Positions 1 through 11,067 are shown, counted from the stretch's first letter. The stretch: 11,067 bases of DNA from Candidatus Nanohalobium sp. (GCA_042217545.1 JBDGSM010000017.1:62588-73654); one strand, 5' to 3'. Notes: generated by a model not told the origin, from the sequence alone. Translations and numbers: made by a program.

Positions 1-1080
1 AGGACCAAAACCACTGTAGAAGCCGAAATAAACGGAAGCTACGGTAAAGCACCTTCAGGCGCATCTACCGGGGAACACGAGGCCAAATGCTTCGTACCTG
101 AAAACCTGGAAGATACCGAAGACCTCCTCCAGAACCTGGAAGGGAAAGATCTCAGCCAGAGAAAATTTGATGACCGGATAAAGAAACTGGACGACACAGG
201 CGATTTTTCACGGATCGGCGCCGCAGGAATAGCCTCCAGCTTCGCATTCAAACAGGCCTCAGGATTTGAACACTCAAACAAGTTCCCGCTACCGCTCAGC
301 AACGTCATAGGCGGCGGAGAACACGGAGGAAACACAAGCATTCAGGAATTCCTCGTCCTCCCTGTCAACGCAGAAACATTTCCCGAAGCACTGAAGACCA
401 ACACAGCAATCTACCAGGAACTACAGGAAAAATACCCACGCAAAATACAGGGTATGAACGATGAAGGAGCACTTATAACTACGATGGACGACGAACAAAC
501 CCTAAAGGCCCTGAAAAAAGTTGCAGACAAGCATGACGCAAGGATAGGCATTGATGTCGCAGCCGCCGAACTCTACGAAGACGGAGAATACAATCTCTCA
601 TCGGTGAGGCAGAAGCTATCTCCAGATGAGATGCTTGACTTCGTACAGAAGCTGATCGACCGTTTCGAACTCGTCTACGTGGAGGATCCGTTCGATGAAA
701 ACGACTTCAGGATGCACGCAAAACTTACAAAGAAAAACCCGGAAGTCCTGATCTGTGGAGACGACCTTTTCACAACCGATAAAGACAGGCTCCAGGAGGG
801 AATCGACAACGGCTCCTGCAATTCACTGATCGTGAAGCCTAACCAGATCGGAACCGTAACTGACGCGGAGGAAACAGTAGAACTCGCCAGAGAGGAGGAC
901 TACACACCAGTTATCTCACACCGGTCAGGAGAGACCTGTGACTCGACCATAAGCGACCTCGCCCTGGAATGGGAAACACCTATCATCAAGGCCGGGATCG
1001 CAGACATCAGGATCGCCAAGCTGAACCGTTTGATCAGGCTCTGGGACCAGATGGAGAATCCGGAGATCAACCAGAGATGA
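1..1080 (+). CDS. eno: Enolase (phosphopyruvate hydratase), 5' end outside window
   Basis: Frame 1 is open from base 1 (RTKTTVEAEINGSYGKAPSGASTGEHEA...), so the ORF-track start at 454 is internal. Enolase motifs seen: PSGASTG, NVIGGGEH, QEF, DEG, GIDVAA, VEDP, GDDL, LIVKPNQIG, SHRSGET. Stop TGA at 1078-1080. Confidence 0.97.
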   Translation, partial: RTKTTVEAEINGSYGKAPSGASTGEHEAKCFVPENLEDTEDLLQNLEGKDLSQRKFDDRIKKLDDTGDFSRIGAAGIASSFAFKQASGFEHSNKFPLPLSNVIGGGEHGGNTSIQEFLVLPVNAETFPEALKTNTAIYQELQEKYPRKIQGMNDEGALITTMDDEQTLKALKKVADKHDARIGIDVAAAELYEDGEYNLSSVRQKLSPDEMLDFVQKLIDRFELVYVEDPFDENDFRMHAKLTKKNPEVLICGDDLFTTDKDRLQEGIDNGSCNSLIVKPNQIGTVTDAEETVELAREEDYTPVISHRSGETCDSTISDLALEWETPIIKAGIADIRIAKLNRLIRLWDQMENPEINQR

Positions 1081-1302
1081 AAAGAACTCAACAGGAAGGC
1101 CCTGATCTACGCAGGCCTGAGCATGATCTCAGTAATAGTAGTGGCCTTCCTCCCAGCTCTTCTTGCTCCGCACAACAGCACCGGACAGGCACTCAGATTC
1201 TTCCTGCCTCTTCTCACAGGTATAATAGCTGGCATACTGATCTTCTTCAGGCTCAAAGATGAAAGCAACATAGATTTCGACGAGCTTGGAGACCAGGAGT
1301 AG
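1081..1302 (+). CDS. Small membrane protein with two predicted TM helices; start uncertain
   Basis: Frame 1 reads KELNRKALIYAGLSMISVIVVAFLPALLAPHNSTGQALRFFLPLLTGIIAGILIFFRLKDESNIDFDELGDQE*: two hydrophobic stretches plus an acidic tail. The first in-frame ATG is at 1123; the ATG at 1077 overlapping the eno stop is one base out of frame. Confidence 0.7.
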   Translation, partial: KELNRKALIYAGLSMISVIVVAFLPALLAPHNSTGQALRFFLPLLTGIIAGILIFFRLKDESNIDFDELGDQE

Positions 1303-1346
1303 AGACCTTCCTCTTCCCTGTAAAGATTTTTCCCAGAGGCGAGCGG

Positions 1347-9164: not shown

Positions 9165-9259
9165 AACCACGAATGCGGGAAAGGATTTTATAGTCATTAT
9201 CCCTTCCAACAGAACAAGATTCAGAGGCCTTAAATGACTTCACACCTCCTTGAAGAAAC

Positions 9260-11067
9260 ATGAACCTCTTCCCCTTCTCCGAAAAACGAGAGAAACAGGA
9301 CCAGATGATCGAAAAAGTCCAGGAAGCAATAGACAGAGAAGGAACACTTGTCGCCCACGCCCCGACAGGCCTTGGAAAAACTGCAGCAGCACTCACACCA
9401 GGCCTTGAAAAAGCACTGGAGGGCGATGAAAAAGTAATCTTCCTGACACCTCGGCACAGCCAGCACCAGATCGCACTGGAGACCGCAGAGAAGATCAATA
9501 AGAGACACGACGCGAACGTGAAGACTGTCGACCTGATCGGGAAGGACCACCTATGTGAAGCAGATTCGATCAGCAGAGGCGGGGAAGGCCCTGATTGCCC
9601 GAGACATGAAAACACTTTCACTGACAGCCATGAATTAACCGATAAGGCGAAGAGAAAGATCAAGGAGCTTCAGGGACCGGCCTTGACCGCGGAAGAGGTC
9701 AAGAAGCGGTGTAACGATGTATGTGCCTACCAGATATCTCTTTACATGACTCAGAAAGCAGATCTGATCGTAGCTGACTACTTCCACATCTTCCATCCTG
9801 CTGTACGTGATATAGTGCTGGAGAAAGCTGAATCAGATCTCAGCGACTGCATACTTGTAGTAGACGAGGCACATAACCTTCCTTCAAGGACGAGAAGTCT
9901 CTTCTCCGTCAACCTCTCGATCCCGAACATTGACCGGGCAATAACCGAGGCGGAGAAGTTCGGATTCTACCAGGAACAGGAGAACCTTGAACAGCTGAAA
10001 AACCGGGTAAACAGACTGGCCCGGGAAAAACTCGGCCAGGAAACCCATGAGGAAACAGTGAAGAAAGAAGACGTGAAAGACCCTGTAGACAGTTTCTACA
10101 GCTATGAGGAGCTTATAGTAGACCTGGAAGCCGCTGCGGAGGAAGTACACGAGGAAAAGGAGAAAAGCTACTGTTCCGGCATCGCAGAATTTTTAGATGC
10201 CTGGAAGGGAAAAGACAAGGGCTTCGTAAGAGCGATCAAACGTGTGATAAGCGACGGGGGCGACAGACGTATCCAGATCAACTACTCCTGCCTCAACCCG
10301 CAGATCTCCACCGAAAAACCGTTGAACGGGTCAAAGGCCTCCGTACTGATGTCCGGAACCCTGACACCGCCTTCCATGTACGTCGACCTCCTGGGAATCG
10401 ATGAAAATAAAAACGAGTCAGTAGAGTTCGGCTCTCCTTTCCCAGAAGAGAACAAGCTGGAACTCGTCATACCGACACTCACGACAAAGTACGAGGAAAG
10501 AGACGAATCCATGAGGCAGAAATACGCCTGGTACCTATCGAAAAGCTTCGATGCCGTGGATGGAAACTGCGCAGTATTCTTCCCGAGCTACAGCTTCATG
10601 TACAAGATAAAAGAAGAACTGAAACAGCACACCGACAGGAAAATATTCACAGAGGACCGCAGCCTCGACAAGGAAGGAAAACAGGAAGTACTGGACGATT
10701 TCGCAAACACCGCAAAAGAAGGAAACTCCGTACTGCTCGGAGTCGCTGCAGGAAGCTTCGGAGAGGGAATAGACTACCCCGGCGAAAAGCTGAAAGGCGT
10801 CTTCATCGTAGGCCTTCCATTACAGAGGCCTGATCTCGAGACCAAAGGCCTTATCGAATTCCTGGACGAGAAATTCGGCAAGGGCTGGGATTACGGCTAC
10901 AGCTATCCTGCTATGAACCGTGCGGTACAGGCCGCCGGTCGCTGCATACGTTCGAAGGAGGACGAGGGCGTTATCGTCTACATGGACAAGAGATACTCCT
11001 GGAGCAATTACCGAAAAGTTCTGCCACCCGAGACAAGTTTGAAGAAGAGTCGTGCGCCGTGGCAGGA
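9260..11067 (+). CDS. xpd: XPD/Rad3/DinG-family Fe-S DNA helicase, 3' end outside window; absent from ORF track
   Basis: Starts MNLFPFSEKREKQDQM (Q motif). Motifs APTGLGKT, VDEAHN, MSGTL, FFPSY, GEGIDYPG, QAAGRCIRS; four Cys (HLC, PDC, KRC, VCAY) suit a [4Fe-4S] cluster. TATA-like CTTAAAT at 9229-9235. Confidence 0.95.
   Translation, partial: MNLFPFSEKREKQDQMIEKVQEAIDREGTLVAHAPTGLGKTAAALTPGLEKALEGDEKVIFLTPRHSQHQIALETAEKINKRHDANVKTVDLIGKDHLCEADSISRGGEGPDCPRHENTFTDSHELTDKAKRKIKELQGPALTAEEVKKRCNDVCAYQISLYMTQKADLIVADYFHIFHPAVRDIVLEKAESDLSDCILVVDEAHNLPSRTRSLFSVNLSIPNIDRAITEAEKFGFYQEQENLEQLKNRVNRLAREKLGQETHEETVKKEDVKDPVDSFYSYEELIVDLEAAAEEVHEEKEKSYCSGIAEFLDAWKGKDKGFVRAIKRVISDGGDRRIQINYSCLNPQISTEKPLNGSKASVLMSGTLTPPSMYVDLLGIDENKNESVEFGSPFPEENKLELVIPTLTTKYEERDESMRQKYAWYLSKSFDAVDGNCAVFFPSYSFMYKIKEELKQHTDRKIFTEDRSLDKEGKQEVLDDFANTAKEGNSVLLGVAAGSFGEGIDYPGEKLKGVFIVGLPLQRPDLETKGLIEFLDEKFGKGWDYGYSYPAMNRAVQAAGRCIRSKEDEGVIVYMDKRYSWSNYRKVLPPETSLKKSRAPWQ

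Follow-up and report, generated by a model that had tools for sequence, protein, structure and literature searches.

What makes a genome accumulate one short palindrome far beyond chance? The question is raised by an 11,067-nt stretch of DNA from Candidatus Nanohalobium sp. (GCA_042217545.1 JBDGSM010000017.1:62588-73654; the window, meaning here the whole stretch analysed), in which the hexamer AGGCCT occurs 31 times versus 2.77 ± 1.75 expected from 200 dinucleotide shuffles (maximum 9, none at 31). The cause of such accumulation, known from the highly iterated palindrome (HIP) HIP1 of cyanobacteria, has been open for about 30 years, and binding-site selection, biased repair and DNA exchange are all in play. 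The same phenomenon is met here in archaeal genomes that measure 1 Mb and hold about 1,100 genes, in which no cognate methylase was found. Motif-rich and motif-poor sisters as near as 86% amino-acid identity provide a natural on/off test of why it arises, and complete named carriers exist.

A genome-wide excess and its local shape

The window is C9:62588-73654 of the assembly G000 (1,032,751 bases, 82 contigs, 92% complete). Half of its GGCC tetramers (31 of 62) are flanked by A and T as AGGCCT. According to our own gene calls, 25 of the sites are genic (4, 6 and 11 in phases 0, 1 and 2 on the plus strand; 1 and 3 in phases 1 and 2 on the minus strand), and those at 1113, 2993, 4078, 4134, 6043 and 9225 lie outside genes. 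The whole assembly holds 3,699 copies, or 1 per 279 bp, which occur on every one of the 82 contigs at 1.3–5.9 per kb and make up 58% of all GGCC. AGGCCT is the top hexamer of G000 under Markov models of orders 0 to 3 (15-, 13-, 5.1- and 2.4-fold; about 10-fold at order 2 with the sites masked), and CGATCG stands at 0.8–0.9 of expectation. When an order-4 null is trained on the entire genome, the excess shrinks to 1.11-fold, yet this is the highest z of all hexamers (z = 33). The excess is small there because most AGGCC and GGCCT 5-mers are themselves sites, which makes the null circular; with the sites cut from the training set, 610 copies are predicted and 7,398 observed on both strands (12-fold). 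Under a dicodon Markov null, which is inapplicable to the AGG-CCT phase, a 1.8-fold excess remains in the two phases that extend over three codons.

Coding sequence contains 3,168 of the 3,699 sites (1,150 genes, own gene calls), distributed over the three codon phases as 540, 1,066 and 1,562 versus 131, 209 and 271 in synonymous shuffles, a 4- to 6-fold excess in each. The spacers carry 478 sites in 115 kb, 15-fold above expectation, and divergent, tandem and convergent spacers all have site densities equal to or above that of coding sequence. The AGGCCT excess is a frame-independent, genome-wide, HIP-like DNA signature, and codon-pair bias does not explain it. The first-pass annotation of the window had listed the same 31 positions, expected 2–3 of them and put about half of GGCC between A and T, and all of this was reproduced. 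It had also placed sites in all three phases, on both strands and in intergenic DNA, as was seen, although its reading gca-ggc-ctg at 1113 exists only within an upstream extension whose start is uncertain. Its argument against a single codon-pair bias stands, as all phases and the spacers are enriched and the two strands score alike. It had named as refuting outcomes that the enrichment vanish under a dicodon-preserving or 4th-order Markov null or prove confined to the window. The enrichment persists under the former in the two phases to which that null applies, and extends to all contigs; under the 4th-order null little of it is left in fold terms, while the rank of the hexamer and the 12-fold excess over a site-free training set remain.

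For comparison among relatives, genomes with at least 2 AGGCCT per kb were called high and those with less than 1 per kb low. The fraction of compatible codon contexts that is occupied by the motif was 0.77 in G000 (n = 3,696), 0.82 in the single-contig high genome G003 (n = 3,924), 0.69 in the high genome G019 (n = 1,084; the first 400 kb, to which its occupancy and sequence comparisons refer) and 0.07 in the low genome G015 (n = 2,064), with log odds of 3.1–5.3 in the high genomes. For example, E/K-G-L is spelled with AGGCCT in 568 of 654 cases in G000, 357 of 428 in G003 and 29 of 214 in G015. The proteins themselves are affected: R-P, G-L, K-A and E-G-L are over-represented, and compatible contexts per 1,000 residues amount to 2.3 and 2.4 in G000 and G003 versus 1.4 in G015 for R-P, and to 3.2 and 3.7 versus 1.5 for [KE]-A-[FYCWS]. 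Since compatible contexts are up to about 2.5 times commoner than in G015, the motif has driven amino-acid changes. Occupancy is alike in small basic proteins (290/391) and the remaining proteins (2,567/3,305). A motif that bends protein sequences in this way will introduce bias when Nanohaloarchaeota are binned or analysed for codon usage and convergence.

The tolerance of the signal was determined by scoring N-GGCC-N words only at contexts where a better form cannot occur. AGGCCT has log odds of 3.0–3.6 across the high genomes. The values in G000, G003 and G019 are 1.0, 2.2 and 2.5 for AGGCCC and 1.5, 2.1 and 2.2 for its reverse form GGGCCT, while AGGCCA and AGGCCG score 0.6 and 0.0 (G000), 1.1 and 1.0 (G003) and 2.0 and 2.0 (G019). 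GGCC without an A or T flank ranges from −0.8 to +0.4 in G000 and G003 and from 0.15 to 1.6 in G019, where counts are small. In G015 all N-GGCC-N scores are close to 0 except for a restriction-type avoidance of GGGCCC. The order of preference is AGGCCT > AGGCCC > AGGCCR > bare GGCC; words changed at inner positions stay at the baseline of G015, and only end-position variants are favoured. Strictness differs by lineage, one clade using nearly AGGCCT alone and another also AGGCC-A/G/C at 4- to 8-fold. The graded scores are shaped like a binding-energy matrix. The sense form scores much like the antisense form, and the signal therefore resides on the DNA. No replication-strand skew is apparent in G003 (origins not mapped), in which the one-strand form tracks gene orientation with no block-wise skew. 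The base outside the 3' end is loose (T 41%, G/C 48%, A 10%).

Neighbouring sites avoid each other at close range. Occupancy relative to expectation is 0.46 at distances of 6–11 bp, 0.78–0.88 at 12–29 bp and about 1 from 30 bp onward; there is no 10-bp phasing between sites, and in G003 the pair correlation stays level between about 30 bp and 3 kb, apart from a single dip to 0.71 at 54–60 bp. This close-range avoidance is a modest, footprint-sized exclusion. The sites do not shield their surroundings: fourfold degenerate positions 1–30 bp from shared sites diverge at 1.00–1.02 times expectation (2,017 positions, 11 pairs), and the G+C content (GC) at flanking fourfold positions shows no difference. 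In G003, AGGCCT is scarce in the rRNA region and in islands that look recently acquired; a type I restriction island and low-GC islands are among its site-poor parts. In one closed genome, a simple Fourier test (not the method of Xu) gave 52 kb as the best period between 10 and 90 kb, with a power of 31.5 versus a null 95% level of 33.6; a 349-kb term was marginally above its 95% level.

Distribution, retention and loss among relatives

The high state was found in 12 of 70 Nanohaloarchaeota genomes, all within one family of 50, and the remaining 58 have less than 1 site per kb, including the intermediate G046 at about 0.95. Genera are split, one with 2 high and 4 low members and another with 4 high and 1 intermediate. 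Complete named records are high over 22 kb (SG9, 4.0 per kb; Ca. Nanosalina sp. VS9-1, 4.1; strain M3_22, 2.4), and Ca. Nanosalina sp. J07AB43 is low; these records belong to the same genome collection as the G-numbered genomes and are not independent of them. In a midpoint-rooted FastTree phylogeny of six genes from about 80 loci, the high loci fall into four groups interleaved with low ones, and a quick IQ-TREE analysis of aIF5B agrees loosely with it.

Between relatives (10 pairs, 76–85% identity), sites are conserved at 0.52–0.76 versus 0.20–0.41 for all hexamers. In the high–high comparisons, made at fourfold divergences of 0.5–1.3, shared sites versus sites with unchanged amino acids numbered 41 vs 50, 34 vs 31, 50 vs 53 and 18 vs 18, and retention was weaker in two further pairs (12 vs 20 and 25 vs 37). 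The picture is different in the closest high–low pair, L250 and L247 (86% amino-acid identity), where 4 of 49 sites are kept and 19 of 28 single changes are of the C-to-T type. The 35 unchanged contexts in L247 are nevertheless much closer to AGGCCT than codon usage predicts (z −4.4), and the same remnant test gave z −3.4 for L238. Distant low controls ranged from −2.2 to +1.5 (26 pairs, two at −2.2 and most weakly negative). Because only the strongest remnant values stand clear of these controls, loss was counted for L247 and L238 only, in whose lineages it is likely. Gain and loss are equally parsimonious in the clade of the remnant-bearing low sisters. In one clade, four sister pairs (L250/L247, L250/L300, L297/L301 and L312/L253) differ in base composition as well, the site-poor member being 8–11 points lower in fourfold GC (values of 0.26 vs 0.35, 0.25 vs 0.33, 0.23 vs 0.34 and 0.25 vs 0.33).

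Other DNA was surveyed for the motif. Logan contigs from a single study had too few variants for a population-level test of the sites, and no alternate HIP stood out in 4–22 kb samples of low genomes. A search for viruses by a triple-site pattern returned 87 stretches, DNA of 80 of which was obtained; among those longer than 1 kb the site density was at most 1.3 per kb, and an acidic proteome was seen in none of the 13 richest that were checked. Two pieces of Halomicrobium plasmids, a very small sample of host DNA, contain 5 and 7 AGGCCT versus 6.1 and 5.6 expected.

Explanations for the accumulation of AGGCCT

We consider weak per-site selection for the site of a sequence-specific DNA-binding protein to be the best reading, with a probability of roughly 0.45. 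AGGCCT would be the site preferred by such a protein, probably two-fold symmetric and present or active in some Nanohaloarchaeota, and every added site would confer a small, nearly independent advantage, for example in chromosome packaging, protection or self-marking. Over time, sites could fill most synonymous positions and even draw amino acids to R-P, x-G-L and K/E/Q-A-x; if the protein or its benefit were lost, they would decay through ordinary C-to-T mutation. A graded, strand-symmetric and local preference, a footprint-sized exclusion and unaffected flanks fit weak selection on a binding protein. Binding by a protein, selection over transmission bias and the nature of the benefit are all points that we infer. 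The first-pass annotation had proposed the binding site of a chromosome-organising protein as one possibility, and this fits best, although no such protein was found.

Several observations weigh against this reading. For paired contexts less than 30 bp apart, the odds ratios of G000 (0.62) and G003 (0.71) have intervals reaching across 1, and the piece of G019 gives 2.2; for this reason the exclusion is termed modest. The flank test loses strength because divergence is near saturation (p about 0.56), and near-identical pairs show 8 site-breaking differences versus about 13 expected, which is not significant. Saturation makes retention uninformative on selection versus biased conversion, and an additive per-strand score is equally predicted by a strand-marking repair ratchet. 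By Pfam, the 109 scanned proteins shared by G000 and G003 include no DNA methylase or repair nuclease, and no gene that tracks the motif-rich state was found, all 11 tested candidates having failed.

The main rival, which we regard as unlikely but by no means negligible, is site-limited biased repair or gene conversion, a molecular drive without benefit to the cell. An enzyme would recognise 5'-AGGCC on a single strand of a mismatch or heteroduplex and retain that strand, making gains easy and losses rare, and two-strand symmetry would make the palindrome the end point. The score is indeed about additive per strand, most clearly in G019 (one flank about 1.6–2.5, both 3.0), the tolerated deviations lie at end positions as predicted by the ratchet described in the main text of Elhai (PMC4390886), and the site-losing sisters of one clade have the lower fourfold GC noted above, as if repair or conversion had weakened. 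However, the flanks are unshielded, G000 shows no depletion of inner one-off neighbours (the C-to-T neighbours AGGTCT and AGGCTT stand at 0.94–1.33 of expectation), no enzyme was found, and NucS occurs in high and low genomes (4/5). The GC link fails in a second clade (0.40 vs 0.38; 0.37 vs 0.46), and the GC gap is partly the sites themselves. The low value of AGGTCT in G003 (0.54) belongs to a broader avoidance of GACC there. An origin in a bias at the codon, codon-pair, peptide or RNA level would agree with the genic position of 3,168 of the 3,699 sites and is next to impossible: it is refuted by the 15-fold enrichment in spacers and by strand symmetry, all three phases exceed the synonymous shuffle 4- to 6-fold, and small basic proteins and the rest are similarly occupied.

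We find it improbable that AGGCCT is a self-DNA tag for uptake or cell-to-cell exchange, like RAATTY in Campylobacter or HIP1 in transformation, whose frequency would rise because site-bearing DNA is preferentially taken up or integrated. Whole-genome spread, amino-acid pull and lineage-wise gain or loss would be expected of such a tag, and the preprint text bioRxiv 10.1101/2024.09.10.611283 describes both a raised transformation by HIP1 and RAATTY as a palindromic uptake signal. On the other hand, RAATTY needs methylation, spacing has no effect at distances from 30 bp to 3 kb, whereas one site per fragment sufficed for HIP1 according to that text, and a search for ComEC alone (PF03772; control matches in 10 of 14) found it in none of five genomes, four of them high. 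Equally doubtful at best is a ratchet coupled to methylation or another modification by a GGCC/AGGCCT enzyme that is unrecognised, recently lost or supplied by the host. In its favour, alternate HIPs are accompanied by cognate methylases and none can be recognised in four HIP1-rich strains (main text of PMC4390886), the main text of PMC11001535 proposes that a methylase passed between a nanohaloarchaeon and its host, and S-adenosylmethionine (SAM) synthetase, searched in five genomes, occurs in G001, G019 and G058, whereas the decaying G046 lacks it. The synthetase is, however, also present in the low G060, no methylase of four families is common to the high genomes, the plasmid pieces show no excess in their very small sample, and the restriction-type signature of the relative G015 is an avoidance (GDGCHC, 0.02–0.08). 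Of the other origins proposed in the first-pass annotation, a GGCC/AGGCCT methylase coupled to biased repair was not borne out, with no shared methylase found, no Vsr found and undepleted C-to-T neighbours in G000, and unshielded flanks; a DNA-uptake protein fared no better, with no ComEC in five genomes and no kilobase-scale spacing effect.

The methylase families searched were C5, beta-class N4/N6, D12 and N6_Mtase, and none is common to the high genomes, single-contig ones included: PF00145 occurs in 1 of 7 high genomes, full-length PF01555 in 1 of 7 and PF02086 in 0 of 5, and strong matches to PF02384 were found only in G003 and G019, where they are type I-like. The 92%-complete G000 has neither PF00145 nor PF03852 (Vsr), the latter search covering G000 alone, and its sole N6_N4 match looks from its sequence like a tRNA methylase. 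Vsr very-short-patch repair, or the MIG glycosylase together with GGCC methylases, would enrich the target site of the methylase; both predict a C5 methylase and depleted C-to-T neighbours, and neither is seen in G000. DNA phosphorothioation (Dnd), for which the carriers would be expected to share a dndBCDE cluster, can also act at GGCC. No Dnd family turned up in the Pfam scans of the 109 shared and 144 G003-specific proteins, which were not aimed at Dnd, and a PAPS-reductase-like gene belongs to a glycan cluster, its orthologue in G015 being 78% identical.

Candidate genes were obtained by subtracting G015 (of which 920 of 948 kb was then available) from the 647 reciprocal best hits of G000 and G003. 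Of the 115 candidates that resulted, 109 were scanned with Pfam (6 were left out for tile borders or size), together with 144 of 228 soluble G003-specific proteins; inclusion of the complete G015 sequence and of low loci brought the candidates down to about 80. The OGG-like HhH protein was present in 12 of 12 high genomes and also in 20 of 38 low ones of the family. This 175-aa protein (L107:13331-13855; G000 C81:3114-3638) is patchy (38/70 genomes), 60–80% identical across the phylum and 72% identical on Halomicrobium plasmids, suggesting frequent exchange with haloarchaea. A VRR-NUC nuclease occurs in 28/50 family genomes and in all six of the mixed genus, UvrB in 5/50, and an Mre11-like protein in 6/50, being absent from the closed high genomes G019 and G058. 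PolB2 is likewise absent from these two and present in the low G060 and G061; DUF460 occurs in G060; a class I SAM methyltransferase is found in 11/50 and is absent from G001. NucS does not separate high from low genomes, and a thymidylate-kinase variant and a dCTP deaminase-like protein failed as trait markers. A PD-(D/E)XK-like protein was rejected with 6/50; at L119:6283-7164 it is a 294-aa protein with a PD-(D/E)XK-like motif and no Pfam family, in 6/50 family genomes. Two small unknown proteins had no usable Atlas match. The driver may be one of the roughly 70 remaining candidates or a variant form of a shared gene, or the 92%-complete G000 may lack it.

The literature searched (few subscription journals, and main texts without supplements) contains no archaeal description of an AGGCCT excess, just as the first-pass annotation knew of none in this lineage. 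The main texts of two nanohaloarchaeal methylome papers do not mention GGCC (PMC10266531, PMC11001535), and that of a REBASE survey of archaea mentions it only for a Sulfolobus system (PMC10609329). HIP1 is GCGATCGC, and the alternate HIPs described in the main texts are GGCGCC, GCsGC, rCCGGy and GGGATCCC (Elhai 2015, PMC4390886; Xu et al. 2018, PMC5861425). AGGCCT resembles the cyanobacterial HIPs in being one short GC-rich palindrome far over expectation in genes and spacers, conserved above control words, with tolerated deviations at its ends and patchy losses among relatives. It differs in being archaeal, 6 bp long and present at 2–5 per kb versus the roughly 0.5–2.5 quoted there for HIPs, in the lack of any cognate methylase found and perhaps in periodicity, the simple Fourier test of the one closed genome having given no significant 10–90 kb period. 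The O/E (observed/expected) > 16 cut-off of Xu, which was meant for octamers, is not reached by AGGCCT at order 2, and the saturation near one site per kb that the long-patch model of Elhai predicts (main text, PMC4390886) is not seen. AGGCCT differs from GCGATCGC and the published variants, the nearest published word being CAGGCCTG of Synechococcus sp. PCC 6312 (0.37 per kb, O/E 14.7; main text of Xu et al. 2018, PMC5861425; also PMC13756078). That word has an AGGCCT core and is an enriched palindrome within a HIP1-poor genome; it is, however, an octamer of one cyanobacterium, about ten times rarer and linked in print to GGCC methylation, whereas the archaeal motif has a loose outer flank and spans four groups. 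The AGGCCT signature is HIP-like and not a member of the HIP1 family.

Among other systems, HIP1 boosts transformation up to about 7-fold, even unmethylated if the DNA is homologous, and the RAATTY of Campylobacter jejuni has an orphan methylase (preprint text, bioRxiv 10.1101/2024.09.10.611283). RAATTY is likewise a genome-wide 6-bp palindrome with purine/pyrimidine ends, and the reshaping of the proteome expected of DNA uptake sequences and uptake signal sequences (DUS/USS) and of RAATTY is also seen here; but RAATTY requires methylation and competence machinery, and here neither a shared methylase nor ComEC was found. The same hexamer is an ordinary restriction–modification target in Alcanivorax borkumensis, whose larger genome encodes StuI-type enzymes and has 1,674 sites with AGGCCT methylated, the main text reporting no hyper-abundance (PMC12128166). 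Unlike Chi-like recombination sites, AGGCCT shows no apparent strand-polar replication skew in G003. Tentatively, and with rather more doubt than conviction, we suggest a methylation-independent genome watermark of DPANN archaea, in which a vertically inherited protein would read AGGCC(T) and organise the chromosome or bias the strand that is kept, its specificity having drifted and its action having been repeatedly switched off. If true, AGGCCT would give Archaea their first highly iterated palindrome and offer a model of HIPs that works without a methylase.

Sites of the window and other signatures

From the translations, we take the genes of the window to include those of enolase, S2, L7Ae, S28e, L24e, aIF5B, an NreA-like protein and an XPD-like helicase. 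The first site (254-259) lies in enolase as CAG-GCC-TCA (Q-A-S), and the second (1113-1118) is 5' of a small membrane-protein gene or inside the uncertain 5' end of that gene. The latter gene (1077-1302) has a likely N-terminus (K-E-L-N-R-K-A-L-I-Y-A-G-L...) that is read in frame from the enolase stop codon, while an ATG that overlaps this codon is in a different frame, possibly by a frameshift, an assembly slip or recoding; the product is 59 aa as called and 74 aa in the G003 orthologue. A Q-rich coiled-coil gene has sites at 2270-2275 (Q-A-S), 2304-2309 (Q-G-L) and 2555-2560 (E-A-S), followed by an intergenic site (2993-2998), one in a 75-aa coiled-coil gene (3080-3085, Q-A-L) and one in the presumed L7Ae-like ribosomal protein gene (3582-3587, L-G-L). 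Two more are intergenic, at 4078-4083, abutting the preceding stop codon, and at 4134-4139, 5' of aIF5B. The aIF5B gene, whose nearest named relatives are Nanohaloarchaeota records, contains six, at 4403-4408 (P-G-L), 4829-4834 (T-G-L), 4916-4921 (K-G-L), 5037-5042 (R-P), 5565-5570 (R-P) and 5663-5668 (G-G-L).

Beyond an intergenic site between converging genes (6043-6048) and one in a minus-strand hypothetical gene (6272-6277, G-G-L), the gene that we take to be NreA-like carries 6889-6894 (S-G-L), 7079-7084 (R-P) and 7857-7862 (Q-A-S). The minus-strand membrane gene, assigned to DUF7544 from its G003 orthologue, has 8507-8512 (Q-A-W), 8518-8523 (E-G-L), only 11 bp from the former, and 8566-8571 (S-G-L). 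After a site between diverging genes (9225-9230), the presumed XPD/Rad3-like helicase gene holds 9367-9372 (T-G-L), 9400-9405 (P-G-L), 10335-10340 (K-A-S), 10810-10815 (V-G-L), 10826-10831 (R-P) and 10846-10851 (K-G-L).

Other sequence signatures were noticed in the relatives. G015 (L127-L172, L355-L356) shows a strong restriction-type avoidance of GDGCHC (0.02–0.08) and TGCA (0.19), and has UvrABC and CRISPR-Cas-like genes that are missing from G000 and G003. In G003 (L073-L125), GACC/GGTC and GACCC-containing words are depleted (0.13–0.42), which is not the case in G000 and may reflect its own restriction systems. GGCC is avoided (0.1–0.5 of expectation) in the low genomes G017, G018 and G021 and the loci L242 and L245; G017 and G021 encode C5 methylases of about 340 aa, possibly GGCC-specific. 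At L262, a low locus beside the clade of the window, AGGACC and AGGTCC, which contain GGWCC, are the top hexamers at 3- to 3.5-fold and could be a weak alternate motif. L263 is a record titled Colwellia polaris with a nanohaloarchaeal aIF5B locus and is likely mislabelled. Finally, two blocks are 87–96% identical between G019 and G003 (C1:333173-334501 vs C1:302845-304170, and 245–247 kb vs 252–254 kb), while the median identity of the two genera is about 65%, which suggests recent transfer.

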